DNA from: Nitrospinaceae bacterium | Lineage (GTDB): Bacteria; Nitrospinota; Nitrospinia; Nitrospinales; Nitrospinaceae | DNA: 64,000 bases | Assembly (NCBI GenBank): GCA_965223665.1 | Contig: OZ245011.1 | Location: forward strand, 3,424,001 to 3,488,000 | Direction of reading: 5' to 3' | Notes under the pieces: model-generated | Told to the model about the DNA's origin: nothing | What the model saw: only the letters and a program-made list of their open reading frames with translations | The model's database searches: none | Position numbers and translations under genes: made by a program | In this document: positions 4,110 to 62,496 of the stretch, one piece after another | Layout: each line of letters opens with the position of its first letter | Position numbering within the stretch: position 1 is the stretch's first letter

Positions 4110-5963
4110 TTATGGAAATGCTGATTGTGAATAAATTAAAAAGTGGGTAATGGAACGGGACCCACCTATTAAATCTACCATAGATAGGCTTTCTCCAGGT
4201 TCGTGCATTTGGCAGTGCGTGTCGTAAACTCCTATACAAAGAGGAGGTATGGGGCCAAGAGCATCCGTAAGTTTCTTTATAAAGGGAATGGTTCCTCCAC
4301 ATCCGTAAAGGCAGGGTTTTTCATTAAACCCCTTCTCCAAGGATTCCCACATTAACTTAAAGGCCGGTTGCGAAATTGATGTCAACCAAGGTTTGGCTGA
4401 CTTATCAGGTTCTATTGATAGTTTAAAACCCTGAGGTGTTTTTTCTTTTAAATGATTTATTAATTTAATTAATACTTCTTCATCATCGCTCCCAGGAGCT
4501 AAACGGATTTCCACGATGCAACTGGCAGTCGACTTTTCAAAAGGTACAGGTTTGCTTATGGAATGGGTCGATAATTGTTGGGTAGAAAAAAGTGAAAGGG
4601 TTTCATTTTCCGTAACCAAATTATCTATATCAGGTACCAATAAGATTCCCTCAGTAGATATTAATTTATCTATTATTTTAGCCAGTTGAATTTCTGGGAT
4701 AGGAAATGGTCCTCCATTTACTCCTGAATGCGGATCTTTGATTGAGGATTGAAGGATTAAATCTAGGGTGTAGTGATTGGGTTCATTAGTTTCAACTGAG
4801 TTCAAATCAATCTTAAGATGAAATCGGTTTAATTTCTCAATTTGATTGAAAAGGAGTTGGTGAAATTTATTTCTATTTATGGTGGGAGAAAGATTAAATA
4901 TAAAGCGCACTCCTGCTGCTCCTAATATAACTGAACCTGTAACTCTTTGTCCAGGGCGGACATTTACAAAAGACTTTCGAAACTGGGATTCAATAATAGA
5001 AACTTTTTCATTGGCAACTGTGGGTAATACTTGATTAAGAAGGCCCGCTTGACTGCGTAGAGTTTCAATTGAAATAGGAATTAAAGCAAGCCATTCTTTT
5101 TCTTCTGAAGTAACGGGAGTATCTAGAATCCCCTCAATAGCAATAACTTGGTTGCCATCAATTAAAGTGGCCAGAGCTTTATACAATGCGGTTTGTTCAT
5201 CTATACGATTGTATGATGAAACACTTTGCATTTGGACCTGCGTCTGAACTAATCCACGAAGAGATGTAGTCAGACCAGGTTTTCCAGTTTCGGGGTTTGT
5301 TACATCAGTAATAATGACGCAATCTATAGAAGAAAAAAAATCTAGATTTTGATGTATTTGCTCCATCAACGAATTTGATCCAGATTCTTCCTCAGTCTCA
5401 AAAATAATTTTTATATTGCAAGGTAGTTGTTGAATTCGATTTTGCAGGTCATCGTTTTCCTTAGATTCAAGTGATTTTAATAGAGCATCCACTGCCATCC
5501 CGGTTGCAATTACCCCGCTTAAATCATCTGCCGCTCCGCGCCCGTAAGCACGGGTCTTATTTTTATTCCAAGTTAATTGAGTGGGTGGGATTCCTCCCCA
5601 TTTTTGAAAGGTGTCATCGTCCATATAAGGTTGTTTGTCCAAATGCGCATATAATAAAACAGTGGGTTTATCTTTCCCTGAATGCATTTCTGCCATTAAT
5701 ATAGGCGTGGCATTTTCTAAGTGAGGAGAAGGAGAATTAATTTTTATGGTTTGAAATCCAATTTCTTTAAGGTAGGTGGAGGCTAATTCTAAAATTTCTT
5801 TCATATCTGAAGGAGAGGTTCGATCCCCCGGGTATTCATTAACTCCAAAACTTCGGCTGTCAATGGCAACAAATTTTTCCATATATTCCATATGCCGATT
5901 CATAAAAGGAGTATTAAAATCGATAAGTTTAAAAACCTCACTTATCCAGCTTTTTGGTTCCAT
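4110..5963 (-). CDS. M20/M25/M40 family metallopeptidase (dipeptidase-like) with enlarged lid region
   Basis: Metal-site motifs YAHLD, GRGAADD, EEESGS, ITD and MHEPGE; also DPHSG and GGTIP. ATG at 5963 (MEPKSW) likely; the ORF extends to 6023. Confidence 0.88.
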   Translation of the reverse strand: MEPKSWISEVFKLIDFNTPFMNRHMEYMEKFVAIDSRSFGVNEYPGDRTSPSDMKEILELASTYLKEIGFQTIKINSPSPHLENATPILMAEMHSGKDKPTVLLYAHLDKQPYMDDDTFQKWGGIPPTQLTWNKNKTRAYGRGAADDLSGVIATGMAVDALLKSLESKENDDLQNRIQQLPCNIKIIFETEEESGSNSLMEQIHQNLDFFSSIDCVIITDVTNPETGKPGLTTSLRGLVQTQVQMQSVSSYNRIDEQTALYKALATLIDGNQVIAIEGILDTPVTSEEKEWLALIPISIETLRSQAGLLNQVLPTVANEKVSIIESQFRKSFVNVRPGQRVTGSVILGAAGVRFIFNLSPTINRNKFHQLLFNQIEKLNRFHLKIDLNSVETNEPNHYTLDLILQSSIKDPHSGVNGGPFPIPEIQLAKIIDKLISTEGILLVPDIDNLVTENETLSLFSTQQLSTHSISKPVPFEKSTASCIVEIRLAPGSDDEEVLIKLINHLKEKTPQGFKLSIEPDKSAKPWLTSISQPAFKLMWESLEKGFNEKPCLYGCGGTIPFIKKLTDALGPIPPLCIGVYDTHCQMHEPGESLSMVDLIGGSRSITHFLIYSQSAFP

Positions 5964-6097
5964 TTTAAGATTCCTGTGTTTAATTTTAACTTTTAGGTAG
6001 AAAACTTTACTTGTAGGATTCAATCCTATAATATGATCTTACGCAATATACTTTCCATAATATTTTTAATTTTAAAATTTTTTTGTTCTAATTCAAA

Positions 6098-6370
6098 ATG
6101 TTTGAAAGAATTAATAATTTACTTCGATTGATTCAAATTTTCCGAGAGAGGGGAAACTGGATTTTAATCAAACATTCTAAAAAGCAACTTATAGATTTCA
6201 TCTTAGGGCGCAATGATTTAAACCGAATGTCGATTTTTAAAGTCCCTTTTTATTGGTTTGATCTTTTAAAAGGACTGGAAGTATTGGTTTGGCGTTTAGA
6301 GACTTTCGGGTTTTTATTTCTTCCAAATTCAAGTGAAGAAAATAAAAAACACTTGAATCGCACCCTATAG
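6098..6370 (+). CDS. Hypothetical protein (90 aa)
   Basis: ATG-started ORF in an otherwise empty gap, protein-like composition; no family recognised. Confidence 0.55.
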   Translation: MFERINNLLRLIQIFRERGNWILIKHSKKQLIDFILGRNDLNRMSIFKVPFYWFDLLKGLEVLVWRLETFGFLFLPNSSEENKKHLNRTL

Positions 6371-8009: not shown

Positions 8010-9289
8010 TTAGCATGGTTTTTTTTGGTCTATTGAAAAGGGTAATGCCATAATTAAATAACAAAGCAAAACCACTTCGGAATCATAAAAATTGGTTTCA
8101 AAAAATCCTCCTACTAAAAACCCCATTACTGAACTTAGGCTTCCAAAAACTATCCAATTTTTTGGGTTATCATTTGAAATTGTATTTTTTAGAAATTTTA
8201 ACGTGGAATAAAAAAACGAAATCCAGAGAAAAAGCCATGTAGCAATTCCAATAATTCCAGCATCTACTGCTAATTGGACAAGGTTGCTATGTAAGGTTCT
8301 GTAATTGCTAAAAATTTCTTTATAACTGGGATACTTATTACGAACCTCTTCTAAACATCTAAATCCACATCCGGTAACAGGATATTCTTCAAAAATTTTC
8401 AGACCCAGTTCCCACATTTGCAATCTTTTTTGTAAAGTAACATCTTCAACTTCGGTAAAACTTTTGATTCTTTCTTTAAGTGGGGCAGGCGATACCTGGT
8501 AAATTACTAAAACAAAAATAGGAATAAAAAGTATTGCTAAGGGTTTCCTTCCCACTAATAAAACCAACAAACCTGCCAAATAACCTAACCAAGTTTGCCG
8601 AGTTAATGTCAATAATAAGCTGATTAAAATTAAAATCAAACATCCCCAAATCCATTTGTTTTTAATATTTCGAAACAACAAATAACTTGTCGCAACCAAT
8701 CCTGCTTGCATAAGCAACCCAGCGAATGTCATGTAAATGCTAAGGGTTCCCGAAACACGATGTTCTAGATCGAAACCTTGAATGAAAGTTTGACCAATTC
8801 CAAGGATGGCTGCCATTGTGGCAACAAAATCATCCAAAAAATTATTGCTTCCCTTAGAGGTAAATCATTAAGTCTTTTCAATGAATTCCTGATGAATTTA
8901 AAATATTGAGAAATTTTATCTAAGTTCAAAAAGTCAGATAATTTACTCGCTCCCAAATTATTCAGTGCCCAAAAAAATACAAGCATTTCAAAAAGCCGTT
9001 TTAAATGTGTGAAACTTTTTGGTGGGTCTAAAGAAGTAATAACAGACAAAATACTTGCGGTTGCAAATAGAAAAAAAGGAGTTGCTAAAGGGAGTCTTAT
9101 ATTGTTCCACTGTTGGGATAAATAAACAGAAATTATCCAGGATATTCCCCCTGCAAATGCCAAGATGTGTGTCAGGGTAATTGAAAAAAAATCAAAAAGG
9201 ACAAACCCAAATAAACAGTATATTTGAAGTCGATAAAAAAATACTGAAACTTTGTTTTCTTGAGTAGCTTGAATGACTGTGGGAATCAT
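8010..9289 (-). pseudogene. O-antigen ligase (WaaL/Wzy_C family), split by a 1-nt frameshift near 8826-8841
   Basis: Two overlapping hydrophobic ORFs (8765..9289 and 8010..8837). The C-terminal part has TLTRQTW, RLQMW, YPVTGCG and LHSNLVQLAVDAGIIG. One extra T joins the two frames. Confidence 0.8.
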
Positions 9290-9402
9290 TGGAAAAACCA
9301 GTGGGAAAGAATAATCTTGAAGATCTTACCTCAGGGTAAAAGATTCTATTGGTTTTTGCAAAAGAGAAAAGCTTTAAAGAGAGAGAAGAAATAAATTACT
9401 TC

Positions 9403-9630
9403 TTAAGCACTATGAGTTCCATCGCAAAAGGGAGAATTTTTTGTTTTTCCGCAATCACAAATAGCAACCCGACGAGGTTTATCCACGATAAACTCTGTAG
9501 GTTGTTTTCCTGTATTTTTAGTTTCATGAGAACCATCGCAATAAGGTTTATTAGCTGACTCCCCGCAAGTGCAGTAATATTTTATCCCAGGAGTTTCATC
9601 AACATAATTCGGGAAGTTTTCGTAAGGCAT
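9403..9630 (-). CDS. CDGSH iron-sulfur domain protein (two 2Fe-2S motifs)
   Basis: CTCGESANKPYCDGSH and CDCGKTKNSPFCDGTH; SD AGGAG. Confidence 0.95.
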   Translation of the reverse strand: MPYENFPNYVDETPGIKYYCTCGESANKPYCDGSHETKNTGKQPTEFIVDKPRRVAICDCGKTKNSPFCDGTHSA

Positions 9631-9747
9631 GGGTGGCTCCTATAAATAAATTAAAAACTTTATTATTTTAATACTTCAGCGTTAGATGATACATTATGGA
9701 TGTTTTAAATAATAGAAACAAGCAAAGTTTAATTTTTTTTGAAAATT

Positions 9748-11127
9748 ATGAAAATTTTAGTCACAGGAGCCACAGGTTTTATTGGCAATAGGTTGCTTTT
9801 AAAACTGCGAGACCTTGACCATGAAGTGGTTGTATTAACCCGTGATCCTAAAAATGCGGTAACGCGACTTCCTGTTCATTGCAAAATTTATGGATGGGAT
9901 CCTGCCTTGCTTGAACCGCCTCGGGAGGCCTTGGAGGGTGTCGATGCGGTGATTCATTTGGCGGGTAAGAATATTTTTGGGCGATGGACGGAGAGCCGGA
10001 AAAATGAGCTCTATAGATCTCGGATCCTATCCACCCATAATTGGGTTAGAGTTTTTAATGAAATGGATGAGAAACCCCAAACCTTTATTTCCCCTTCAGG
10101 AATTGGGGTCTATGGTGATCGTGGCGACGAAGAGTTAGATGAAGAATCTTCCTTGGGAAGTGATTATTTAGCTCATTTATGTCATCAATGGGAAAAAGAA
10201 GCTCTTGCGGCCCAAGACCTTGGGATTCGCACGGTAGTTTTCAGAATTGGGGTTGCTTTAGGAAGTGAAGGAGGCGCTCTAAACTTGATGCTTCCTGCAT
10301 TTAGATTAGGATTAGGTGGAAAATGTGGTGACGGAAAGCAATGGTTCAGTTGGATACACGTGGATGACCTGGTTGATATGATGATTTTCGCCTTAGAAAA
10401 TAAGCAAATTCAAGGTCCCATAAATGCAGTTAGTGCAAATTGTGTTACCAATGCAGAATTCTCGAAATTCTTAGGTCAATCCTTAAATCGTCCGACATGG
10501 TTTACGGCACCAAAATTTTTATTGAAGATGGCTTTGGGGGAAATGGCAGATGTAATTTTAGGAGGACAAAAGGTTAAGCCTAAGAAAGCATTAGAAGCGG
10601 GTTTTACTTTTAAATATCCCCATCTGGACAAAGCCCTGGAAACAGAATCAGATAAGAAAACCCATAACTTATATATGGAGCAATGGGTACCTCAACCGAT
10701 AGAAAAAGCATTCGAATTTTTTTCCAATGCCAAGAACCTTGAAACTCTAACTCCAAGATTTCTAAACTTTAAAGTTTTAAGTCAATCTTCAGAAGAGTTA
10801 AAAGAAGGTGTTCGAATTAATTATCAATTAAAACTGTATGGAATCCCCTTTCGATGGCAAACATTGATTACCGAATGGCATACAAACCAACAATTTTCAG
10901 ATGTGCAAGTAATTGGCCCTTATTGGTTATGGCATCATACCCATGAGTTTATTGCAAAAGAAAAGGGGACTTTGATCCGGGATCGGGTTACCTACCGTGT
11001 TCCATTATGGGTTTTTGGAGATATTTTTATTCTTCCTATTATAAAAAAAGACTTACATAAAATCTTTTCTTACCGCCACAAGATAGTTGAGGAAATTTTC
11101 GTTTCTAAAAACGAAGAGACACTCTAA
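9748..11127 (+). CDS. TIGR01777-family NAD-dependent epimerase fused to a C-terminal SRPBCC domain
   Basis: VTGATGFIG, GDGKQWFSWIH and GFTFKYP motifs; C-terminal FFSNAKNLETLTP...GPYWLWHHTHEF...RDRVTY. Confidence 0.9.
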   Translation: MKILVTGATGFIGNRLLLKLRDLDHEVVVLTRDPKNAVTRLPVHCKIYGWDPALLEPPREALEGVDAVIHLAGKNIFGRWTESRKNELYRSRILSTHNWVRVFNEMDEKPQTFISPSGIGVYGDRGDEELDEESSLGSDYLAHLCHQWEKEALAAQDLGIRTVVFRIGVALGSEGGALNLMLPAFRLGLGGKCGDGKQWFSWIHVDDLVDMMIFALENKQIQGPINAVSANCVTNAEFSKFLGQSLNRPTWFTAPKFLLKMALGEMADVILGGQKVKPKKALEAGFTFKYPHLDKALETESDKKTHNLYMEQWVPQPIEKAFEFFSNAKNLETLTPRFLNFKVLSQSSEELKEGVRINYQLKLYGIPFRWQTLITEWHTNQQFSDVQVIGPYWLWHHTHEFIAKEKGTLIRDRVTYRVPLWVFGDIFILPIIKKDLHKIFSYRHKIVEEIFVSKNEETL

Positions 11128-16543: not shown

Positions 16544-17308
16544 CTATTGAGGGTAAGGCAAAATTAAACTTAAGCAAGTTACCCCTCCATCGGCTTTTTC
16601 AAATTCGCTCATTGAAATGGGAAGAGGTTTCCATCCTTGATTGGAAAGAGTTTCAGTTAATTTGGGGAATCCTTTCGGTAAAATCACATTATCCCCTATT
16701 GCCAGGCAATTGGCAGCATAGCTTTCCTTGGGGTCCACTATTATTTTTTTAAATCCGTTAAAATGAGAGTCATCGACCATCTTAGGATTCAAAACTATAG
16801 TATTATTTCCTAAATAACTTACCGATGATTTCAAATGAAGATCCTTATTGACTTCAACGGGAATAATTTTTTTTGGTGAGTTTTTTGCCAGTTCTAAAAC
16901 GGCGTTATGGTTTGTTCGAGAGGATTGTCCAATAAAAATAACCTTTTCTGTCTGTAAAATATCCCCTCCATCAATAGTAACTGGTGAAAATAAAACCTCA
17001 ACTTTAAGGAACTCTTCTAATTCTTTCTTGGTTAAATCTGTCTCCCCTTTTCTGGTGGAAGACTTCATGGAACAAAGCAAAGCCTTATTTTCAAGGATTA
17101 TTGCATTGTCTTCAATGAATACACTATCCGGGAAATTTTCTAAAGGGGGTAAAGTTCTTACTTGGATTCCGGATTTTCTTAAAGACTTTACGTATTCATT
17201 ATGCTGCTTTAAGGCCGTTCGGAATTCAATGGTTTCCCTATCTGGATGATTTGATATTGCCTTAACAAACGAGGTACCGGGAGAACGGACCATTGCCAAC
17301 AAATTCAT
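16544..17308 (-). CDS. Dimethylarginine dimethylaminohydrolase / amidinotransferase family protein
   Basis: PDSVFIED, DGGD, LHLKS, YAANC and EFEKADGGVTCLS (catalytic Cys). Confidence 0.9.
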   Translation of the reverse strand: MNLLAMVRSPGTSFVKAISNHPDRETIEFRTALKQHNEYVKSLRKSGIQVRTLPPLENFPDSVFIEDNAIILENKALLCSMKSSTRKGETDLTKKELEEFLKVEVLFSPVTIDGGDILQTEKVIFIGQSSRTNHNAVLELAKNSPKKIIPVEVNKDLHLKSSVSYLGNNTIVLNPKMVDDSHFNGFKKIIVDPKESYAANCLAIGDNVILPKGFPKLTETLSNQGWKPLPISMSEFEKADGGVTCLSLILPYPQ

Positions 17309-17313
17309 GACAA

Positions 17314-17802
17314 TTATTTTTTTGTTTTTTCCTCTAAGGTGGGCATATTCATGAGACGAGAAATATATAGCATGGTTAATTTCTTTTTGCAGACTTTATA
17401 TCGTTTCAAAATTTCCTTAGTAGGTAAAAGTGAATCATCGGTCCGGTGTTTCTGGGCCATGTATACTACCCCATTGACAAAAGTGAAGTCGTGTTTGGTG
17501 AAGCGCATTTTTTTTCGCAGATATTCATCAGGGTGATGATATAGTTCGTCTAGTTTCGGTAAAAATTTTTCATCTATTTCGTATAATATTCCCTCCATCA
17601 TTCCTAAATTACTATCTGTTGGAACAATATTAGGATCGCCAACTCCCTCAACACCTTGGTTGTCAACAGGGATCTTATTGAATTTTAAACGATAAGCCGA
17701 AAGGGTGACGCTAAAGGAAGCATTATATTCGAGCCCGTGCTCTTCCATTTTTTGAGGAATCATCATTTCATCGTAAGCGAACCAATGGATAAAGTTGGGC
17801 AT
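17314..17802 (-). CDS. Gamma-glutamylcyclotransferase-like protein
   Basis: WFAY-type start, YRLKFNK, NIVP, EGILYEI and LDE..Y pattern; the canonical YGS is altered to YDE. Confidence 0.7.
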   Translation of the reverse strand: MPNFIHWFAYDEMMIPQKMEEHGLEYNASFSVTLSAYRLKFNKIPVDNQGVEGVGDPNIVPTDSNLGMMEGILYEIDEKFLPKLDELYHHPDEYLRKKMRFTKHDFTFVNGVVYMAQKHRTDDSLLPTKEILKRYKVCKKKLTMLYISRLMNMPTLEEKTKK

Positions 17803-24162: not shown

Positions 24163-25098
24163 ATGATTCATCGTGTCCACAAAATATTTCTCAAAGTTTT
24201 TGCAGCTTTAGTTTTTCCTCATTTAATTTTTGTAATACCGATTTCTGCAGAATTATCTCCACAAGATGCAAAATCAAAATTAGATCTTCACGAATATTCC
24301 GATATGGTCGAAATTTCCGAAGGTAAGTTTAAGATGGGTTTTAACTTTAAGGAGGTTTCTAAAGTTTTAAAATGGTGCCAAAAAGTTGATAAAAAATGTG
24401 TTCGTTGGTGGTTCAAGGATGCATTCCCTTCCCGGTTGGTATATTTGGATTCTTATTGGATTGATATTTATGAAGTGACAAATGAAAAATATAGAGAATT
24501 CGTATTAGCGACTGGACATCGTCCAGCCTTAGATAGCTCTTGTAAGTCCGACAAGTGTTGGGAAAATAACCTTTGGAAAGGAAATGATTTTCATAAAGAT
24601 GTTCGGTTGCAGCCCGTAACCCAAGTCAGTTGGTTTGATGCCGATGCTTATTGTAAATGGCGTGGCAAGCGGCTTCCTACGGAAGCGGAATGGGAAAAAG
24701 CTGCAAGAGGACCCACAGGGAATATGTTTCCCTGGGGAAATGATATGCCACCTGGTCGAGCAACCTACAGGAGAAAATGGCGAGGTATTCATACCATGAC
24801 AGATGTGGGCTCATATCCTACAGGAGTTTCTATTTATGGGGTTCATGATATGGCCGGAAATGTATGGGAGTGGGTAGCAGATTGGTATGATCATAAATAT
24901 TATCAAAAAAAAATAAATAAAAACCCAAAGGGTCCAGAAAATGGAGAACTAAAAGTAGTTCGTGGGGGCTCTTGGGTAAATTTTAAAGATTCCTTGCTTA
25001 GTGCTTTTAGGCGTTGGACTCGCCCCGAGGAAAGGTATAGTGACACTGGTTTTCGATGTGCCAAGGACCCAATAAATGAAACAAAAACGGACGGATAA
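24163..25098 (+). CDS. Exported FGE-sulfatase (SUMF1/EgtB/PvdO) domain protein
   Basis: YEVTN, RLPTEAEWEKAARG, DMAGNVWEW, RGGSW and GFRCA; N-terminal signal-like segment. Confidence 0.92.
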   Translation: MIHRVHKIFLKVFAALVFPHLIFVIPISAELSPQDAKSKLDLHEYSDMVEISEGKFKMGFNFKEVSKVLKWCQKVDKKCVRWWFKDAFPSRLVYLDSYWIDIYEVTNEKYREFVLATGHRPALDSSCKSDKCWENNLWKGNDFHKDVRLQPVTQVSWFDADAYCKWRGKRLPTEAEWEKAARGPTGNMFPWGNDMPPGRATYRRKWRGIHTMTDVGSYPTGVSIYGVHDMAGNVWEWVADWYDHKYYQKKINKNPKGPENGELKVVRGGSWVNFKDSLLSAFRRWTRPEERYSDTGFRCAKDPINETKTDG

Positions 25099-35550: not shown

Positions 35551-35859
35551 ATGGTTCAAAAGAATAATATATTTCTAGGTATCTTCTTGCTTGGGCTTAC
35601 CGGTGTAATGATCGGTTGGGTGGTTGAAAGCCCATTCCTATCGGTGGTGGCGGGGGCCTTAGGGACAGGGATTGGTGGACTGCTGGGCTGGCTGGGGGGG
35701 AAAAGGTATTTGATCACGATTTGTTTAGGTGTAGTGATTGGAACGGCACTTGGATACCAAACCGGGGATCAAGATATATTAATTATGGCGGCAGGATCGG
35801 GTGGTGCTATAGCTGGATTTCTAGCCAATTTTATTGAATTGTTTGTCTCCAAAAAATGA
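35551..35859 (+). CDS. Small glycine-rich membrane protein
   Basis: Hydrophobic GxxxG-rich helices; ATGA overlap with the next gene. Confidence 0.75.
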   Translation: MVQKNNIFLGIFLLGLTGVMIGWVVESPFLSVVAGALGTGIGGLLGWLGGKRYLITICLGVVIGTALGYQTGDQDILIMAAGSGGAIAGFLANFIELFVSKK

Positions 35860-36575
35860 AAATTAATTTTTATAAAACATTAACATGGGTTGCTATTATT
35901 ATCCTCCACACTTTGGTTTTATCTTCGACTGCTATATCCCAAACTAAGGATATGGTTAAAATTCCTGCTGGAGAATTTTTAATGGGATCACAAGAGTCTG
36001 AAGATGAATTCCCACACCCTGTTTTCGTTTCCGAGTTTTGGATTGATATTTACGAGGTCACTCAAAAACAATTTCAACAAGTGATGGGGGATAATCCTTC
36101 AGACTTTTATGCAGAGGCTTCCCCGGTAGATCAGGTAACCTGGTTTGAAGCGAAGGAGTATTGCCAGAAAATAAATAAACGACTTCCCACCGAAGCTGAA
36201 TGGGAAAAAGCGGCAAGAGCGGGTTCGACGACACGCTATTATTGGGGAGATAAAATTTTAAATGATTTTGCATGGTATTGGGGTAACTCAGAGAAAAGAA
36301 CACATCCTGTCGGACAAAAAAAACCTAATGCTTTCGGTTTGTATGACATGCTTGGAAATGTGTGGGAGTGGACAGGTGATTATTATATAGATAATTATTA
36401 CCCAGTAAGTCCTAAAAAGGATCCGAAGGGCCCTTTTACCAGTAAATATCGAAGTATTAGAGGGGGATCCTGGCGTGACCTGGAAGGTTTCCTCCGTACT
36501 ACCCGACGAAATTATGAACTCCCTTCGGCACGACTTAACCACATTGGGTTTCGTTGCGTCAAATCAAGTTTATGA
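35856..36575 (+). CDS. Exported FGE-sulfatase domain protein
   Basis: Signal peptide; RLPTEAEWEKAARAG, DMLGNVWEW, RGGSW and GFRCV. Confidence 0.92.
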   Translation: MKINFYKTLTWVAIIILHTLVLSSTAISQTKDMVKIPAGEFLMGSQESEDEFPHPVFVSEFWIDIYEVTQKQFQQVMGDNPSDFYAEASPVDQVTWFEAKEYCQKINKRLPTEAEWEKAARAGSTTRYYWGDKILNDFAWYWGNSEKRTHPVGQKKPNAFGLYDMLGNVWEWTGDYYIDNYYPVSPKKDPKGPFTSKYRSIRGGSWRDLEGFLRTTRRNYELPSARLNHIGFRCVKSSL

Positions 36576-36589
36576 TGATTTGGACGCCG

Positions 36590-37579
36590 TTAAAATAAAC
36601 CTTGTTGCGGATAAAGGTGGCCTACGAAATCGCCATATCCATTAAGATATTGGGTGAAGCGTTTATTTTCTGTACCTATCAACTTCTCCAGGGTTTGGGG
36701 CCAACGGGGATGTGGAATTTTAGGATTAACATTAGCCGTAAAATCATATTCATGTGGGATCAGGGTATTCCAAAAAGTTTCAGGCTTATAATCTACCAAC
36801 TCAATTTTTTGAATTCCTTTTATACTTTTAAAACCATATTTCCACGGCACTATTAATCGGATAGGGGCACCGTGCTGTTTGGGAAGTGGGTGACCATAAA
36901 TACCGGTGGCTAATAAAGTTAATTCGTTTGCTGCTTCTTTTATCATCAAGGCTTCTGTATAAGGCCAAGGTTGCCAAAATGCTAACTGGGCTTGAGCGGT
37001 GAAGGGTTCATGAAATGAAGTAAATTTTACATATGTAGCTTTTGATAAAGGTTCAACTGTATCCAATAAAGCTTTTAAAGGGAACCCAGTCCAGGGAACT
37101 GCCATTGCCCAGGCTTCAACACAACGTAATCGGTAAAATCTTTCTTCGAGAGTAAACAACTTTAGGAAATCATCAATGTCAAAAGTTCTGGGTTTGTTGA
37201 CTAATCCAGTGACTTCCACTTTCCAGGGTCGTGTGCTCAATGCTTGAGCATGGTGGTGTACATCCTCTTTAGTTTCACTAAACTCATAATAGTTATTGTA
37301 ATTGGCAGCAATGGTTTCTCGAGTTAACTCTCGATCCATTTTGTATTTGGTGCTGCGTTTAGCTGGATACAATTTCTTTTCTAAAGGAGTAAGGTTTATT
37401 TCAGGATGTTGGTTAATAACGGCTTCAGAACCAGGTGTACATCCATATAGTAAGTTAGCGGATAGAATGCTCACCCAACCGGAGGTTTTTAAAAACTCAC
37501 GCCGATTTAAAAAAATGGATTCCGGGGTGATTTCGTTTTCGGGAATTTCCCAATCATTTGGGATGTGTATATGACTCAT
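36590..37579 (-). CDS. msrP: Protein-methionine-sulfoxide reductase catalytic subunit (molybdoenzyme)
   Basis: Tat motif RREFLK; NNYYEF, RLRCVEAW and GAPIRLIVPWKYGFKSIK. Confidence 0.95.
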   Translation of the reverse strand: MSHIHIPNDWEIPENEITPESIFLNRREFLKTSGWVSILSANLLYGCTPGSEAVINQHPEINLTPLEKKLYPAKRSTKYKMDRELTRETIAANYNNYYEFSETKEDVHHHAQALSTRPWKVEVTGLVNKPRTFDIDDFLKLFTLEERFYRLRCVEAWAMAVPWTGFPLKALLDTVEPLSKATYVKFTSFHEPFTAQAQLAFWQPWPYTEALMIKEAANELTLLATGIYGHPLPKQHGAPIRLIVPWKYGFKSIKGIQKIELVDYKPETFWNTLIPHEYDFTANVNPKIPHPRWPQTLEKLIGTENKRFTQYLNGYGDFVGHLYPQQGLF

Positions 37580-42793: not shown

Positions 42794-43588
42794 TTATGGC
42801 AAAGGGAGGACGGTACGAAATCCGTAAATATTATTTTTTACTGTGGGTAAATTTCTGGCTCTTGTAGTCGCTTTCACCTCATCAATATTATTAACCCAGG
42901 AGCCCCCCCTTAATACTTTCATTTGTTTAGGTTCAGGTCCTTCAGGGTCCAATTCCGGGCTGAATTTGTAATACTCGGGGTCATACCAATCCAGACACCA
43001 TTCCCAGACATTTCCGGCCATATTTAAAACTCCAAATGGACTGGCACCTGATTGATAATAGGTTGCAGGGGCGGTGAATTTATATCGATCTTCCATTCCG
43101 TAAATATTTACAAAAAACAAATTAAATCCTTTAGCCCATTTCTCTCCCCACGGGTATAACCTCCCGTCATTTCCTCGAGCAGCTTTTTCCCATTCCGCTT
43201 CTGTGGGAAGACGTCGTCCTTTCCAACGTGCGTAAGCCATGGCATCAAACCAACTGACACCAACTACGGGTTGGTCGGGTTGGTTAAACCGGTCATCATC
43301 CCAGTATTTGGGCACAGGATGATTGGTCGATTCTACAAATTGCTTATATTCAGAGTTGGAGACTTCGTATTTATCAATAAAGAATGCCGAAGTGAAAACA
43401 TAGTGCAGGGGTTTTTGGTCTTCTTCTCCACTGGCAGTTCCCATAGGAAAATAACCCTCAGGAATATAAATCATACCCTGTGGTGGTTCCGGGTTAGCAA
43501 ACCCAAAAGAAAAAAAACCAAAGACAAAAATAAAGCTTAGATTTAAGCAGAAAAATTTAAAAATAAATTTAAAGTGGTTTTGACTCAT
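42794..43588 (-). CDS. Exported FGE-sulfatase domain protein
   Basis: QPVVGVSWFDA, RLPTEAEWEKAARG, NMAGNVWEW, RGGSW and GFR. Confidence 0.92.
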   Translation of the reverse strand: MSQNHFKFIFKFFCLNLSFIFVFGFFSFGFANPEPPQGMIYIPEGYFPMGTASGEEDQKPLHYVFTSAFFIDKYEVSNSEYKQFVESTNHPVPKYWDDDRFNQPDQPVVGVSWFDAMAYARWKGRRLPTEAEWEKAARGNDGRLYPWGEKWAKGFNLFFVNIYGMEDRYKFTAPATYYQSGASPFGVLNMAGNVWEWCLDWYDPEYYKFSPELDPEGPEPKQMKVLRGGSWVNNIDEVKATTRARNLPTVKNNIYGFRTVLPLP

Positions 43589-56652: not shown

Positions 56653-57255
56653 TTGATAAACTTACAAACATCACAAAACATTAAGAAAATTTATTCTGGC
56701 CATTGGAGTATGACCATGCTTAATAAAGTGAGATTTTTTTGTAAGGTTTTTTTTATTTTTCAGTTTGGTTTTTTTTTCCTTACTTCCCCTATAATGGCGG
56801 AAAATATTTCTAAAAAGCCTGTAAATGTTTCATCAGATCAGAGGTTTCAGGATTTTGGAGATGGAACCATTTTAGATTCCAGTAATCATCTGATGTGGAT
56901 GAAGCAAGATTATTGGCAGATAGAGAAAAAATGGGTGAATTGGTATACGGCTCAAGAATTTGTCCAGCGAATGAATAACAAAAAATTTGCAGGATATAAT
57001 GATTGGAGATTGCCGACTGCTAAAGAAGCCCATGCTTTATATGATCGCCGCCGTCGAAATATTGATAAGGATGGAGATAAGATTTTTATTGATCGGATTT
57101 TTCCCAAAGGATCGGGGTGGGGAACATGGACACAAGAAGAAAAAGGTAGTCAGGCAATTGTTGTTTCATTTAAGGATGAAGGGGGGCAAGCTTATCAGGA
57201 TAAAATCAAGGGTCCTGATGCCTTTTTACGGCTGGTGCGAGGACCTGTTTCTTGA
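56653..57255 (+). CDS. Exported DUF1566 (Lcl C-terminal) domain protein
   Basis: RFQDFGDGTI.D...LMW, GYNDWRLPT and RLVR; true start probably ATG 56710 or 56716 (GGAG SD). Confidence 0.85.
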   Translation: MINLQTSQNIKKIYSGHWSMTMLNKVRFFCKVFFIFQFGFFFLTSPIMAENISKKPVNVSSDQRFQDFGDGTILDSSNHLMWMKQDYWQIEKKWVNWYTAQEFVQRMNNKKFAGYNDWRLPTAKEAHALYDRRRRNIDKDGDKIFIDRIFPKGSGWGTWTQEEKGSQAIVVSFKDEGGQAYQDKIKGPDAFLRLVRGPVS

Positions 57256-57320
57256 TTTAGTAATTGAATGATTGGTTTATCTGAATTATAAAATTCGAAA
57301 ATTTAATAAAGGAGACCGTC

Positions 57321-57836
57321 GTGCGAATATTAAACTCAGTAATCTTATCTATTATGATAATTTTTGCCGCAACATCAAATTCGTTAGCTGATGAAACTCC
57401 AGGACCCTTAGCAGGCTATACGATTCATGTCACTGCACCTCATATGATGGATGGAGAAGTAGTGGGCCCTTTTCACCATTATTGCAAGCCTATCAATAAA
57501 GATGTAATCCAATGTATTTTATTTGAATCCACAGACCCGAATGCAAGAATGACCGAGGTCGAATATATGGTTTCAAAAGACTTGGCTCGAAAAGTCATTC
57601 CTGGTTGGTCTCATAAAGCAAATTGGCATGATCATAAGCAGGAAATTGAAACAGGCCGAGTAGCCGTTATTCATCCTACCGATGAAAAAGAAGTAAAATC
57701 TTTAGTGGATCATGTAGCAAAAACTGATGGTATTATTTTTCACTTGTGGCCCAAAGATGCACCAATTCCTGATGGAACAGTAGGGATTGCCCAATCTGTA
57801 GGACATTGGGAAGCTTTGCATGGAAAAGTAAAGTAA
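57321..57836 (+). CDS. Exported DUF1264 (OBAP-like) protein
   Basis: Signal peptide; HHYC, QCILF, EVEYMVS and WHDH..E; AAGGAG SD with GTG start. Confidence 0.8.
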   Translation: MRILNSVILSIMIIFAATSNSLADETPGPLAGYTIHVTAPHMMDGEVVGPFHHYCKPINKDVIQCILFESTDPNARMTEVEYMVSKDLARKVIPGWSHKANWHDHKQEIETGRVAVIHPTDEKEVKSLVDHVAKTDGIIFHLWPKDAPIPDGTVGIAQSVGHWEALHGKVK

Positions 57837-57859
57837 TGCCATTGAATTTTTAAATTAAA

Positions 57860-58303
57860 TTGAAAATGAATACTATAAGAAAGTTTTCCCCCATAATATT
57901 CTTATGGATTGCAGTGATTTTTCTAATTCAACCCGCTTCTGCATTTCACCCAAGCATTTATGAGCCGCGGGTTCCAAAAGAAGAACTTGAAAATATTCAG
58001 GAAATTGAAAGTCCCTTTGAGGAAACATCTGAAAATATTGAAAAAGGCAGAAAGATTTATTTTGGAAAAGGACTTTGTGTTACCTGCCATAGTAATAATG
58101 GAAAAGGAGTTTTATTACCTGGTCATTCACCCAGGAATTTTACTAATGTGAAATGGCAGGATTTAAGAACCGATGGTGAATTGATGTGGGTGCTGAAAAA
58201 TGGTAGTCCGGGAACAGGAATGCCGATTCGAGTGGGTAAGGTGATATCAGAAGAAGAAGGTTGGTATGTTATTCAATTTATTCGTACATTTAGGGGAAAA
58301 TAA
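57860..58303 (+). CDS. Periplasmic monoheme cytochrome c
   Basis: Signal peptide; CVTCH, DGELMW and GSPGTGMP. Confidence 0.92.
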   Translation: MKMNTIRKFSPIIFLWIAVIFLIQPASAFHPSIYEPRVPKEELENIQEIESPFEETSENIEKGRKIYFGKGLCVTCHSNNGKGVLLPGHSPRNFTNVKWQDLRTDGELMWVLKNGSPGTGMPIRVGKVISEEEGWYVIQFIRTFRGK

Positions 58304-58417
58304 AAATTAAGTCACTCTGGTATTTTTATTAGTGAACGTATTAAAATAAACTTGATTGGATAATAAAAATCCAAACCGAACTAATTATTTGAGAATACTT
58401 TCTAGGAGTTTGCAATT

Positions 58418-59419
58418 ATGCGAATAGCATTTAGCCTTATATTAGTCTTGGTTTTAGTATCCTGTAGTCATACCAAAATTCAGGAGCAAGACTCTTCATA
58501 TGAGCCGGTACCAAAAATGGCTTACCCTAAAAATAACCCTTGGTCAAAAGATAAAGAAGAGCTTGGTAAATTACTTTACTTTGACAAAAGACTATCCGGT
58601 GACAATTCAATAAGCTGTGCAACATGCCACGATCCTTCTAAGGGTTGGTCAGATGGATTACCTAGAACCATTGGTTTTGGGAATAAAGAATTGGGCCGAC
58701 ATTCCCCTACCATCATTAATAGTGGTTATTTTGAGGCACAATTCTGGGATGGGAGGGCGAATACTTTAGAAGAACAAGCCGTGGGACCCATTGCCGCTCC
58801 AGGAGAAATGAATCAAAATTTTGATGAATTAATAAAAGAACTTGGTGATATTCCAGAATATAAAAAAAGGTTTAATAAAGTATTTGGTTCATCGGGAATT
58901 TCTAAAGAAAACATTGCAAAAGCCATTGCCACATTTGAACGATCTGTGGTGTCTAAAAACTCCGCTTATGACAAATTTGCTAAAGGTGATCGGTCCGCTA
59001 TGTCAAAGGCTTCTGTTCGAGGAATGAAATTGTTTTTTGGTAAAGCCAAGTGCGGAATTTGCCATAATGGCCCCGTATTTACTGACAGTCAATTTCATAA
59101 CATTGGGGTAAAGCAGCATGGACCGCTTAAAGTAGACTTAGGTCGTTATAATGTTACTAAAGATAATTTCGATAAAGGAGCTTTTAAAACTCCAGGTTTA
59201 CGAAATATTTCCCAAAACCCACCCTATATGCATGATGGTAGTGAGGCGACCCTTAAGGAGGTTGTAGAATTTTATAATCGGGGTGGTGATGTAAAAGAAA
59301 ATTTGAGCCCGTTCATAACTCCATTAAATTTGAATGAGCAAGAGGTTATGGATGTGGTTGCCTTTCTTAAAGCTTTAGATGGAGAACCTTTGCAAATTAA
59401 GGCTCCTAAATTACCTTAG
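58418..59419 (+). CDS. Diheme cytochrome c peroxidase/MauG superfamily lipoprotein
   Basis: Lipobox LVSC; CATCH, FWDGRA, GEMN, CGICH, FKTPGLRN and PYMHDG. Confidence 0.93.
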   Translation: MRIAFSLILVLVLVSCSHTKIQEQDSSYEPVPKMAYPKNNPWSKDKEELGKLLYFDKRLSGDNSISCATCHDPSKGWSDGLPRTIGFGNKELGRHSPTIINSGYFEAQFWDGRANTLEEQAVGPIAAPGEMNQNFDELIKELGDIPEYKKRFNKVFGSSGISKENIAKAIATFERSVVSKNSAYDKFAKGDRSAMSKASVRGMKLFFGKAKCGICHNGPVFTDSQFHNIGVKQHGPLKVDLGRYNVTKDNFDKGAFKTPGLRNISQNPPYMHDGSEATLKEVVEFYNRGGDVKENLSPFITPLNLNEQEVMDVVAFLKALDGEPLQIKAPKLP

Positions 59420-59431
59420 TGTTTTTCAAGG

Positions 59432-59938
59432 ATGAACTTTAAGGAGACTATTGTGTTAAAAATAATCAAAATTTTGTGGGTTGGGTTCACTCTTCTATTT
59501 TTGGCACTTTGTTCCACGGTATATGGGCAGAGTATTTTGAACAAAGAAGAACCTTCTGGAATTTGTCCGCAACCCCGAAAAACCCCCAAAGCTCCCGATG
59601 AATATTTAAAGGCTAAAAATCCATTAGAACCGACTTCAAAAAATATTCTTGCGGGTAAAACCTTGTTTATGTTTGATGCTAAACCTAGTGCTTGTAAAAT
59701 ATGTCATGGATTATCAGGAGATGGTTTGGGAATAATGTTTCGTCAAGTTCACCCGAAACCGAGAAATTTTACTTGTGTTTATACGATGGATAAATTACCA
59801 GATGGTCAATTGTTTTGGGTTATAAAGAATGGGTCTCCAGGGACGGCTATGCCCTCTTTTGATTATCTGGATGACAATGAGATTTGGCAATTGGTCCTTT
59901 ATTTGAGAAGTTTTGCGAAGAAAGATTGGAATTTATGA
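59432..59938 (+). CDS. Periplasmic monoheme cytochrome c (CPQ..RNFTC type)
   Basis: CKICH, CPQPRKT, RNFTC and DGQLFW..KNGSPGTAMP; probable GTG start at 59453. Confidence 0.92.
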   Translation: MNFKETIVLKIIKILWVGFTLLFLALCSTVYGQSILNKEEPSGICPQPRKTPKAPDEYLKAKNPLEPTSKNILAGKTLFMFDAKPSACKICHGLSGDGLGIMFRQVHPKPRNFTCVYTMDKLPDGQLFWVIKNGSPGTAMPSFDYLDDNEIWQLVLYLRSFAKKDWNL

Positions 59939-60525
59939 ACAAATGTTTTAATTTTAGATTAATTCGTTTACTAGGGAAGATTGGGTTTACAATTTTTATT
60001 TTTAGTCTCTTCTTTTATTGCCCTGAGGAAATGTTTGCTGAAGAAAAAATGGAATATTCCGATATTCAATTAATCATGCACCATGGGCGACCTCACGGAG
60101 GGCACCATGGCAGGCATTCTATGCATCATGGAATGGGTAGGAGGAGTCAGGGAATTTGCCCTCAAACTAGAACGACTGCGCATGCTCCGAGCGAAATAGG
60201 GTCTTTGAAAAACCCCTTAGAGTTAACTCGAGAAAATCTGGATCGGGGAGAGTCTCTGTTTCAACGAACTGCAGAACCAACTGCTTGTAAAATATGCCAT
60301 GGTCCTGAAGGTAATGGTTTTGGCATGATGGCTCAAGGGTTGTCACCTATGCCCAGGAATTTTACTTGTAAAGAGACGATGAACGAAATTGCAGATGGTC
60401 AAATGTTTTGGATCATAAAAAATGGTTCCCCCGGAACGGGGATGCCCGCTTTTAAACTTTTTCTCTCTGACGAAGAAATTTGGCAATTAATATTGTATAT
60501 AAGACAATTTTCAAAAAGTAATTGA
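59935..60525 (+). CDS. Periplasmic monoheme cytochrome c with His-rich N-terminal segment
   Basis: HHGRPHGGHHGRHSMHHG, CPQTRTT, CKICH, RNFTC and GSPGTGMP; ATGA overlap with the previous gene. Confidence 0.92.
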   Translation: MNKCFNFRLIRLLGKIGFTIFIFSLFFYCPEEMFAEEKMEYSDIQLIMHHGRPHGGHHGRHSMHHGMGRRSQGICPQTRTTAHAPSEIGSLKNPLELTRENLDRGESLFQRTAEPTACKICHGPEGNGFGMMAQGLSPMPRNFTCKETMNEIADGQMFWIIKNGSPGTGMPAFKLFLSDEEIWQLILYIRQFSKSN

Positions 60526-60804
60526 AGCTTTGTTAGATGCTTACTTGGCGTTCTATTAGAGGATGGGAGGCGGAGGTAATTTATTCTGAGAAAGCTCAAA
60601 AATGTTTTTTTAGATAGGAAAAAATTTTTGTGTTTGTTAGGTTACTTTTAATTAAAAGCAACCCTTTCTTTTGAGCAGTCTCGCCCTTAAACATTTGCTG
60701 ACCCTTGTAAAATCTTGTCATAGGAAAAGGTTTTCCCGGAAGCAAAAAATTGGGATCCGTCATTTAATACAAACCTGTAATTAATTTTATTTAGGAGGAT
60801 CCTT

Positions 60805-61821
60805 ATGAAAACATTTCTTCAGACCTGTCATTTAAAAATTACCGTGTTGCTTTTTTCATATTTAGTTTTTTTTGGCAGTGTGTCGAATTCCTGGGCAAAT
60901 AGTAACCAAGAAGCAGAAAATTTAATAAAAAATGTTTGCTCCTCCTGCCATCGGTTTTCAGGGACACCGGATTCCAAATTCAAATTGAAGGCACCTGATT
61001 TAATGTGGGGAGGGAATAAGTATCAAAGCGATTGGCTTCGTCGTTGGCTCCAAGGAAAAGAGGAAAATCTATACCCTAATAGTTACAGATGGGATCAGGG
61101 AGGTGGTTCGATAAAGCACATGGCATTGTCTGAAACCCAGGCAAATGCAATTGCAGAATATTTTGAGAAAAATTTACTGGATCCCCGAGTAAAGGAAAAT
61201 GCAATTGACCTTTCCAATTTTAGTGAAATGGAAAACCAATTTGGCGCTGAAATTTATAAAAAGTTTTCCTGTTTAGGGTGTCACCAAATAAAAGAAGAGG
61301 GAAAAAAAATTGGAGGGGCCATTAGTGCCAATCTCTATGACTCTGGAAACCGTTACAATGTGGATTGGCTTTATCGTTTTGCTTTAAATCCACAAGATTT
61401 TACTCCGCATAGTGGAGAATATTTGGCTGATTTAAGTGGATTGGGTGTTCGCTATATTGTGGGCTATTTAATGACTTTGGGGAAATCGGATTATAAATTT
61501 TTTGAACCCTGGAAAACAGAATATTTTAAAAAAGCGGATTCAAACCGAGGTGCTAAAGTTTATAAGAACTATTGTACGCAATGTCATGGCATGAAAGGAA
61601 AAGGGGATGGGCCAGGCGCTGCGGGATTAGACCCTAAGCCTGCCGTACACTCCGAGTTACCATTGAGTGATTATCCAGAAGACTACCTTTTTAACGTAAT
61701 TTACTATGGCGGAAAGAGTGTTGGAAAATCTCCTAATATGCCTGATTGGGGATTAACCTTGCCACCTCAAGATTTAGCTGATGTGATTGCTTATCTTCGA
61801 GCAACTTTTAAAGGTGAATAA
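60805..61821 (+). CDS. Periplasmic triheme cytochrome c
   Basis: Signal peptide; CSSCH, CLGCH and CTQCH; AGGAGG SD. Confidence 0.93.
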   Translation: MKTFLQTCHLKITVLLFSYLVFFGSVSNSWANSNQEAENLIKNVCSSCHRFSGTPDSKFKLKAPDLMWGGNKYQSDWLRRWLQGKEENLYPNSYRWDQGGGSIKHMALSETQANAIAEYFEKNLLDPRVKENAIDLSNFSEMENQFGAEIYKKFSCLGCHQIKEEGKKIGGAISANLYDSGNRYNVDWLYRFALNPQDFTPHSGEYLADLSGLGVRYIVGYLMTLGKSDYKFFEPWKTEYFKKADSNRGAKVYKNYCTQCHGMKGKGDGPGAAGLDPKPAVHSELPLSDYPEDYLFNVIYYGGKSVGKSPNMPDWGLTLPPQDLADVIAYLRATFKGE

Positions 61822-61833
61822 ACTGAATTGATT

Positions 61834-61871
61834 AAAAGGCGGCTCAATTATTTTACTTGAGTCGCCTTTTT
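61834..61871 (+). terminator. Intrinsic terminator
   Basis: AAAAGGCGGCTCAA-loop-TTGAGTCGCCTTTTT just after the triheme gene stop. Confidence 0.85.
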
Positions 61872-62007
61872 AGCAATCTTCGGCATAGAGACTATTTTAT
61901 TGTTTGCAATGAAAGGATCAATGGGCGTTCTCCATGTCATTTCACTAAATTGATGATAAAATGAAAAACTTAAAATTTATCAGTTTGAATTATCTTTGGA
62001 TATAGAT

Positions 62008-62496
62008 ATGAAAAAAGTTTTTTTTCTATACTTTTTGTTTATTTTGATTTTGTTTGGTTGTGCGAATTCTGGTTCCAATACTGAAACCCAAATAGAAAAG
62101 CAAAGCATTAAGAAGGTTTCGCTAGGGGATTGCCCCCAAGCTCGAATAACACCTCAGGCACCTAAATCTATGTTGAAAGCTAAAAATCCAGCGGATGCCA
62201 AACCGGAGAATTTTAAAAAAGGGGAAAAATTGTATCAGGAAACTGCTACCCCTTTAGCATGTAAAACTTGTCATGGTGAAAATGGAAGTGGATTAGGTGA
62301 TCCGGACTTTGAAAGTACCCCCGCCGCACGCAATTTTACTTGTAATGAAACTATGCAAAAAATTTCAGATGGACAATTATTTTGGATCATAAAAAATGGT
62401 TCCCCAAACACTTCCATGCCCTCGCATGATAGCTTGCCTGATAAAGATATTTGGAATTTAGTGCTTTATATTCGTGGTTTTGCAAACTCTAATTAA
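62008..62496 (+). CDS. Monoheme cytochrome c lipoprotein (CPQ..RNFTC type)
   Basis: Lipobox LFGC; CPQARIT, CKTCH, RNFTC and DGQLFWIIKNGSPNTSMP. Confidence 0.92.
   Translation: MKKVFFLYFLFILILFGCANSGSNTETQIEKQSIKKVSLGDCPQARITPQAPKSMLKAKNPADAKPENFKKGEKLYQETATPLACKTCHGENGSGLGDPDFESTPAARNFTCNETMQKISDGQLFWIIKNGSPNTSMPSHDSLPDKDIWNLVLYIRGFANSN

Follow-up and report, generated by a model that had tools for sequence, protein, structure and literature searches.

The window analysed here, a 64,000-nt stretch of DNA from a Nitrospinaceae bacterium (contig OZ245011.1 of assembly GCA_965223665.1, positions 3,424,001 to 3,488,000) with a G+C content of about 37%, includes a cluster of eight co-oriented open reading frames (ORFs) on the + strand between positions 56653 and 62496. 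The initial annotation described it as a periplasmic heme cluster built around a diheme enzyme related to MauG and MbnH and a protein of the DUF1264 family. Its inventory of the locus was confirmed: six of the eight genes code for cytochromes, which together carry nine CxxCH motifs (0, 0, 1, 2, 1, 1, 3 and 1 in genes 1 to 8). This report deals with the DUF1264 gene (gene 2), the cytochrome c gene that follows it (gene 3) and the diheme gene (gene 4). The genes are as follows.

Gene 1, 56653-57255, + strand: exported Lcl_C (DUF1566) protein that is not a cytochrome (Pfam PF07603, 5.8e-22; no CxxCH).
Gene 2, 57321-57836, + strand: exported DUF1264/OBAP protein, putative metalloenzyme (PF06884, 1.1e-21, 77.7 bits vs a cut-off of 25; no CxxCH).
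Gene 3, 57860-58303, + strand: monoheme class I cytochrome c with the motif CVTCH (Pfam Cytochrome_CBB3 and Cytochrom_C).
Gene 4, 58418-59419, + strand: diheme lipoprotein of the CCP_MauG family (PF03150, 6.6e-59), with CATCH at residue 67 and CGICH at residue 212.
Gene 5, 59432-59938, + strand: monoheme cytochrome c with a CPQ motif.
Gene 6, 59884-60525, + strand: monoheme CPQ cytochrome c with a His/Met-rich segment.
Gene 7, 60805-61821, + strand: triheme cytochrome c (CSSCH, CLGCH and CTQCH).
Gene 8, 61996-62496, + strand: monoheme CPQ cytochrome c, probable lipoprotein (LFGC).

The export signals proposed for all eight products are borne out as predictions by a hydrophobic N-terminal stretch in each of them (best 12-residue hydropathy 2.35-3.40), and lipobox-like sequences are found in the diheme protein (LVSC) and in the last cytochrome (LFGC). 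A GGAG is found 4 nt ahead of the ATG at 56710, the probable start of gene 1. For gene 6 the likely start is the ATG at 59935; it and the gene 5 stop codon share the sequence ATGA (59935-59938), an overlap that suggests coupled translation. The intergenic gaps range from 12 to 114 bp across genes 1 to 6, and there are 279 bp before gene 7 and 174 bp before gene 8. Promoter-like and terminator-like sites within the cluster showed no excess over the shuffled expectation.

A search with the DUF1264 protein resulted in 914 matches, and the relatives named among the 120 matches listed belong to Nitrospinota, Candidatus Nitrotoga, Candidatus Nitrohelix and Nitrospira. The surroundings of the gene were compared in the best 80 of 546 stretches that include a DUF1264 relative, taking one genome per species. 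By title these 80 loci comprise 39 of Nitrospinota type, 17 of Nitrotoga, Nitrosomonadales or beta-proteobacterial type, 16 of Nitrospirota type and 8 that are other or unlabelled. Among the 80 loci, 76 have 500 bp or more of sequence downstream of DUF1264, and in 63 of these 76 the next gene on that side is a same-strand cytochrome of the gene 3 cluster; in 48 of the 63 the distance is 100 bp or less. These first neighbours are a distinct kind of cytochrome. A CPQ-like motif is found in 1/60 of them vs 51/73 of the other cluster cytochromes, and a quick tree built from 137 cytochromes unites the first neighbours with window gene 3 in one clade (66 rows; support of 96 in the Shimodaira-Hasegawa-like approximate likelihood ratio test, SH-aLRT), with the CPQ-type cytochromes, including gene 5, grouped apart. 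The DUF1264 tree has two clades with a support of 99 each. Since the main Nitrotoga group stands beside the Nitrospinota locus L003 on both the DUF1264 and the cytochrome trees, the pair appears to have been inherited and transferred as a unit. Judging from these gene neighbourhoods and trees, DUF1264 and the gene 3-type cytochrome are a two-gene module common to Nitrospinota, Nitrospirota and Nitrotoga. Of the earlier proposal that the small cytochromes act as electron relays of the DUF1264 protein, support is thus found for a conserved companion of the gene 3 type, but not for the three CPQ cytochromes, a separate subfamily that is not conserved with DUF1264.

The features of the DUF1264 protein that were noted at the outset (12 His and 4 Trp residues, WHDH at 102-105, GHW at 161-163 and HMM at 41-43) are all present. 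Ten residues are invariant in 29 close relatives (H36, H41, H53, C55, C65, H103, D104, H105, E108 and R113). When 1.84 billion representatives were searched, 592 relatives came out at E <= 0.001. In 31 of these, a diverse set with identities down to 23%, H53, E81 and H103 do not vary, and H52, C55, C65, W102, H105, E108 and W143 are near-invariant. The family-wide conservation of H52, H53, C55, C65, E81, H103, H105 and E108 argues for a metal site and lends support to the metal binding predicted for this protein in the initial annotation, and we infer that the clade of the window shares it. The conserved set of residues (several His, a Cys, a Glu and a Lys) resembles the iron site of superoxide reductase, by composition only. 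The available part of a recent preprint describes DUF1264 as a novel-fold candidate whose predicted binuclear metal site is buried in a pocket, deep and enclosed, that would fit a small molecule; for a homologue from Salmonella, produced with the signal peptide removed, it gives 0.5-0.91 Zn per monomer (10.64898/2026.10.18.759936).

An AlphaFold2 model of the window protein has a mean predicted local distance difference test score (pLDDT) of 75.8, with a confident core and values below 50 in the GHW-bearing C-terminal tail. This tail (residues 151-171, 57771-57836) has the form GHWE...HGK, is conserved in the closer relatives and may serve as a flexible extension for docking or for capping a metal. 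Foldseek comparison of the model with the PDB gave no match at E <= 0.001 (best E 0.12, TM-scores <= 0.25). The only PDB sequence matches were designed ankyrin-repeat proteins, with which no stretch passes alone, and they were discarded as composition artefacts. The protein matches no NCBIfam family, including no MbnP model, and only DUF1264 clusters came back from an Atlas search. A work on Beggiatoa that mentions DUF1264 deals with cold-shock domains to which a membrane domain is fused, and is uninformative here. The plant oil-body-associated proteins (OBAP) and the zinc-binding Salmonella homologue are the described relatives of gene 2, which shares with them a Pfam score above the cut-off and the conserved His, Glu, Cys and Trp residues; the window clade differs from them in being exported, in occurring mostly among nitrite oxidizers and in its pairing with a cytochrome c of its own.

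Two natural fusion proteins bear on the function of the family. In P0328 (1100 amino acids) and P0358 (549 amino acids) the DUF1264 domain follows a beta-propeller weakly similar to the SBP56 family. In P0328 there are in addition two cupredoxin domains at the N-terminus, which show Cys/His/Met copper-site patterns, and, by reading of its sequence, two further cupredoxin-like stretches at the C-terminus. No longer fused relatives close to the window DUF1264 were found, which is weak evidence. Cupredoxins and cytochromes c share one role, that of a one-electron carrier. In view of the cupredoxin fusions and of the conserved cytochrome partner, a redox enzyme is the most economical reading of DUF1264: it has the appearance of a redox-active metalloenzyme served by an electron carrier of its own, and a passive substrate protein seems unlikely.

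The second subject is the diheme enzyme. Its best solved relative is the Nitrosomonas europaea peroxidase 1iqc (6.6e-62, 213 bits, residues 40-333), and lower scores over the whole length were obtained with MbnH 6e1c (2.2e-44, 156 bits) and MauG 3l4m (5.3e-21, 79 bits); the match to the Burkholderia enzyme BthA 6nx0 is distant (5.2e-14, 56 bits) and includes no single stretch that passes alone. When the 49 residues around PYMHDG were searched alone the ranking shifted and MbnH became the top match (6.7e-8), all alignments being ungapped. In these alignments Tyr286 (codon 59273-59275) falls on chain position 294 of MauG and on the Tyr of MbnH (DIYSEGG) and of BthA (AFYNT), while in 1iqc the aligned residue is Met258 (ETMGR), which we take to be a heme ligand of the Nitrosomonas peroxidase. 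The segment in question reads PYMHDG...EFYNRGG in the window, as had been noted initially, and Tyr286 is invariant in 25/25 relatives. These relatives are 66-74% identical to gene 4 and are labelled Nitrospinota, Nitrospinaceae or Nitrospina where named. The ligand Met of canonical peroxidases is absent, as had been claimed: Tyr286 stands in its place, the segment that follows differs and no conserved Met is found in its stead past the second CxxCH (the only invariant Met residues among the 25 relatives are M131, M203 and M271). The second heme is thus predicted by alignment to be Tyr-ligated. Tyr-His heme ligation is described for MauG and BthA, and the MauG mutation Y294H is cited, in the available text of a study of BthA (PMC6405878).

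Other parts of the gene 4 product are closer to the canonical enzymes. The peroxide-pocket Gln and Glu are retained, since the segments EEQAVGPIAAPGEM and FWDGR align with 1iqc and Q120, E130 and W110 are invariant in the 25 relatives. The last of these is the inter-heme Trp of FWDGR, whose retention the initial annotation had reported correctly. On the other hand, Phe87 is found where all four aligned canonical peroxidases have a loop His, presumably the distal ligand of the resting low-potential heme in those enzymes. The protein scores below the cut-offs of both curated family models, MauG (TIGR03791, 286.5 vs 443.85 bits) and MbnH (TIGR04039, 230.6 vs 362.85 bits). By these comparisons gene 4 is an enzyme with a peroxidase-like backbone and a second heme of the MauG/MbnH/BthA type that lies outside both curated families. 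It shares with MauG the diheme fold, the two CxxCH motifs, the inter-heme Trp and the position of the Tyr, but the window has no mauA or mauB. With MbnH it shares PYMHDG, the inter-heme Trp, the Tyr at the heme-2 ligand position and the nearest C-terminal segment, but not an adjacent MbnP-family gene. Like BthA, it would have a Tyr-ligated second heme and is without a known substrate protein; unlike gene 4, BthA is described as having a Ser at the site of the inter-heme Trp (available text of PMC6405878). The absence of mauAB and mbnP had been stated initially, and no MauA, MauB or MbnP family was found by Pfam and NCBIfam among the window ORFs scanned.

Tentatively, and with a confidence that stops short of probable, we read the cluster as a set of periplasmic electron-transfer genes of a nitrite oxidizer, with two catalytic units and four further c-type cytochromes, that disposes of periplasmic oxidants. 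Nitrite oxidation would keep the periplasmic cytochrome c pool reduced, and the CPQ cytochromes and the triheme protein may be part of this pool. In the first unit, the DUF1264 protein would be an enzyme-like metalloprotein with a site made of the conserved His, Glu and Cys residues, and its own monoheme cytochrome would pass single electrons to or from it. In the second, the diheme enzyme, with its putative His/Tyr-ligated second heme, would react with hydrogen peroxide and draw on the cytochrome pool to reduce it. Through its own cytochrome the DUF1264 protein may reduce a second small reactive oxygen or nitrogen species, or may oxidize it and be drained by the pool; it would be a catalyst and not the substrate of the diheme enzyme. 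The available parts of two genome studies describe cultured Nitrospinae as without catalase and superoxide dismutase, consider that a cytochrome c peroxidase might degrade peroxide and leave the handling of superoxide unexplained (PMC3578206, PMC8026999).

We lean to the oxidant-disposal reading because of the frequent pairing of DUF1264 with a cytochrome, the single clade formed by the gene 3-type cytochromes, their apparent joint transfer with DUF1264, the conserved residues, the predicted pocket and the cupredoxin fusions, and because of the alignment of Tyr286, the reported lack of catalase and superoxide dismutase in Nitrospinae, and the genes for a LuxR-type regulator and a GAF kinase found upstream. 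Several observations weigh against it. The adjacent cytochrome is missing in 13 of the 76 loci. According to the available part of the report cited above, the only tested DUF1264 homologue bound zinc, which is not redox-active (10.64898/2026.10.18.759936). Nitrotoga genomes, as described in what was available on them, have catalase and superoxide dismutase yet keep the module, and the genes that flank it there (multicopper-oxidase, NirK-like and CusBA) point to copper or nitrogen-oxide chemistry over oxygen radicals. Finally, the enzymes of the MauG type, including MauG and MbnH, are generally poor peroxidases according to the available text of one study (PMC11892367), and a Tyr-ligated heme therefore speaks against simple peroxide removal, but BthA is described as retaining peroxide turnover in the part of the BthA study available (PMC6405878). 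A more specific version, in which DUF1264 and its cytochrome are a new periplasmic cytochrome-c-dependent remover of superoxide or related reactive oxygen or nitrogen species and form, together with the diheme peroxidase, the oxidant defence of Nitrospinae and Nitrospira, which appear to be without superoxide dismutase, superoxide reductase and catalase, is a long shot.

The alternatives have to be weighed against the genes that surround DUF1264. The ORFs called in the 80 loci were labelled by the window proteins and clustered within about 7-8 kb of DUF1264. The most frequent neighbours are small cytochromes like genes 3, 5, 6 and 8 (65/80 loci), followed by relatives of gene 7 (32/80). A gene 1 homologue is found upstream in 21/80 loci, all labelled Nitrospinota; an upstream methyltransferase in 21/80, an upstream transporter in 19/80, a LuxR-type response regulator just upstream in 21/80 and, alongside the latter, a GAF histidine kinase in 14/80. 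CusA and CusB were found in 16/80 loci each, multicopper-oxidase-like genes in 14/80 and the diheme gene in 12/80. The Nitrospinaceae locus L001 has the whole gene order of the window, from an 844-residue membrane protein through the downstream methyltransferase, with identities of 91% for DUF1264, 92% for the diheme protein and 95% for the gene 3 cytochrome. The DNA of the window must therefore stem from an organism closely related to that of L001, and an origin in Leptospira, to which the Lcl_C domain and the G+C content had seemed to point, was rejected. Locus L012 has an amidinotransferase-like (ADI/DDAH) and GGACT-like gene pair directly upstream of DUF1264 (8520-9775), and a pair of the same kind is located in the window at 16544-17802, 40 kb upstream of the cluster.

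A role in the handling of a metal, copper in particular, in which DUF1264 and its cytochrome would oxidize, reduce or buffer a periplasmic metal ion and the cluster would serve metal homeostasis, is unlikely but has several observations in its favor. In 16 Nitrotoga-type loci (e.g. L011, 6368-15696) genes for CusA and for CusB, the latter with a heavy-metal-binding domain, come after the pair, and 14 of these 16 also have multicopper-oxidase or NirK-like genes upstream; the order in Nitrotoga is multicopper oxidase, diheme cytochrome c, NirK-like protein, DUF1264, cytochrome, CusB and CusA. The DUF1264 protein of Candidatus Nitrotoga sp. M5 (L050, 9980-10654) ends in a His/Asp-rich repeat tail, and the P0328 fusion adds cupredoxin domains. 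In the window, gene 6 codes for a 20-residue segment with 9 His and 3 Met (60076-60135), located between the signal peptide and the CPQ motif, that looks like a metal-binding tail and is kept in 7/133 cluster cytochromes, those nearest gene 6. The signal peptide of the DUF1264 protein, as read from its sequence, has no twin-arginine motif, which fits metal loading in the periplasm. However, copper genes adjoin the module only in the Nitrotoga lineage and there are none in this part of the window, and the buried pocket described in the available part of the DUF1264 report suits catalysis over ion buffering (10.64898/2026.10.18.759936).

An energy-yielding oxidation, in which DUF1264 would oxidize a small reduced sulfur or nitrogen compound and its electrons would flow through the cytochrome to the respiratory chain, is quite unlikely. 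It draws on genes for sulfur and nitrogen metabolism that stand beside the module. In L043 (11139-12842) a SorA-like molybdoenzyme and a SorB-like cytochrome, both below curated cut-offs, are located between the homologues of genes 3 and 4, and a DsrE-like gene follows the cytochromes. Genes with a rhodanese domain are found in L016 and L063, and genes for rhodanese-fused flavoproteins are also seen beside the module. The Nitrotoga gene directly upstream of DUF1264 is NirK-like (164.7 bits vs a cut-off of 296.3), and the beta-propeller of the two fusion proteins is the one weakly similar to SBP56. Such neighbours are sporadic, however, and occur in few of the 80 loci, the SorA-like score is 244.8 bits vs a cut-off of 600, and DUF1264 itself has no tie to sulfur or nitrogen chemistry. 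In Nitrospira loci a PAS/sigma-54 activator and a protein of about 580 residues are found upstream; one of the latter, with 578 residues, has no Pfam, NCBIfam or PDB sequence match. The contexts in other loci thus diverge among copper, nitrogen oxides, sulfur and redox sensing and, as they point different ways, no substrate can be named for DUF1264.

The cluster could also be no single system, but an island of respiratory cytochromes in which the diheme gene and the DUF1264 pair have come together by shared regulation or chance, which we also consider quite unlikely. The gene content downstream of gene 3 does vary widely across syntenic Nitrospinaceae loci, several of which have an ORF of 400-480 residues with one CxxCH between gene 3 and the next cytochromes (L007, 11339-12565; L003, 10868-12322; L026, 5489-6694). 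The proteins in this slot in L007, a 408-residue monoheme protein, and L003 have no Pfam or NCBIfam match, and that of L007 also has no PDB sequence match. The wider gaps before genes 7 and 8 and the lack of an excess of promoter-like and terminator-like sites are compatible with such an island, but the short gaps among genes 1 to 6 and the ATGA overlap are not what it would lead one to expect. Nor is the recurrence of diheme genes as neighbours of DUF1264, which spans two phyla and more than one gene order.

This recurrence is the part that stood of the conserved DUF1264, diheme and CPQ cytochrome neighbourhood expected from the initial annotation. As a whole the neighbourhood is not conserved: the CPQ cytochromes do not accompany DUF1264, and the diheme gene is found in the minority of loci given above and in 9/21 of those that share the upstream synteny of the window. 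It does recur, though, in three gene orders: after gene 3 in Nitrospinaceae (genes 2, 3, 4), immediately ahead of DUF1264 in L078 (Nitrospinaceae) and in L079 (Nitrospirota), and after DUF1264 and a receiver-domain gene in L010. The enzymes belong to two subfamilies, 65-92% and 46-48% identical to that of the window, with 46% for L078 and 48% for L079. The top family model of the L078 enzyme is MbnH (270.3 bits, below the cut-off), and the L079 diheme gene (locus 4415-6100) ends 6 bp before DUF1264. Of the 12 sequences that extend over the Tyr site, 11 retain this residue and that of L079 has Phe; the L006 sequence is cut by the contig end. Mapped on the DUF1264 tree, the association requires 8 changes, and well-supported branches force no fewer than 4 of these. 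Among these related loci the repeated association appears to exceed shared ancestry, and the three gene orders and two subfamilies make a functional link between the diheme enzyme and DUF1264 plausible.

MbnH acts on MbnP and MauG on methylamine dehydrogenase, and the initial annotation had proposed by analogy that the DUF1264 protein is the substrate or metal-binding partner of the diheme enzyme, with the small cytochromes as relays. Spelled out, the diheme enzyme would use peroxide to oxidize a Trp or another residue of DUF1264 and so mature a metal site. The Tyr of the MauG/MbnH/BthA type, the C-terminal segment nearest MbnH, the MbnH-like enzyme of L078, the recurrence of the gene beside DUF1264, the presence of an exported His-rich protein in the same cluster as the diheme gene and the position of Trp102 next to the conserved His103 and near His105 are in line with this proposal, but it is the least likely of the alternatives, since 68/80 DUF1264 loci and 12/21 syntenic loci have no nearby diheme gene, Trp102 and Trp143 are near-invariant across the DUF1264 family and so are not tied to a diheme partner, the L079 enzyme has Phe in place of the Tyr, DUF1264 matches no MbnP model and the predicted metal site is described as buried in the available part of the DUF1264 report (10.64898/2026.10.18.759936).

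The remaining genes of the cluster and of the window can be described briefly. Sequence search found no solved relative of gene 1, and the middle domain of gene 7 is weakly SoxX-like (45.6 bits vs a cut-off of 61). The best NCBIfam match of genes 3, 5, 6 and 8 is cytochrome 579 of Leptospirillum, but their scores with NF033864 are 72.5, 45.8, 49.9 and 43.8 bits, respectively, vs a cut-off of 280, and they are distant relatives of it at most. Elsewhere in the window there are three separate proteins with an FGE-sulfatase domain (24163-25098, 35856-36575 and 42794-43588) and an MsrP-type molybdoenzyme (36590-37579, 396.8 bits vs a cut-off of 207).

Searches of the literature, which did not cover gene lists in bioRxiv supplements, found no link of DUF1264/OBAP to nitrite oxidizers or to a cytochrome partner, and those that combined MauG with the nitrite-oxidizer genera found only coverage of anammox enzymes. 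The DUF1264-cytochrome pair is an undescribed module, and gene 4 is, by its alignment, a new member of the Tyr-ligated diheme group. Enzymes of the Tyr-type diheme clade are routinely annotated as plain cytochrome c peroxidases. Nitrospinota, Nitrospira and Nitrotoga account for a large share of nitrate production in the oceans, in soils and in treatment plants, and to our knowledge both the periplasmic electron carriers and the oxygen-radical defence of nitrite oxidizers are poorly known. Such a module, common to three unrelated lineages and apparently transferred in one piece, is a concrete candidate, open to testing, for a periplasmic function that is still missing. With the diheme enzyme, the small set of Tyr-ligated MauG-like enzymes gains a large clade, of Nitrospinota wherever named, and DUF1264, a family that reaches plants and fungi, would acquire its first biochemical context in the form of a redox partner.

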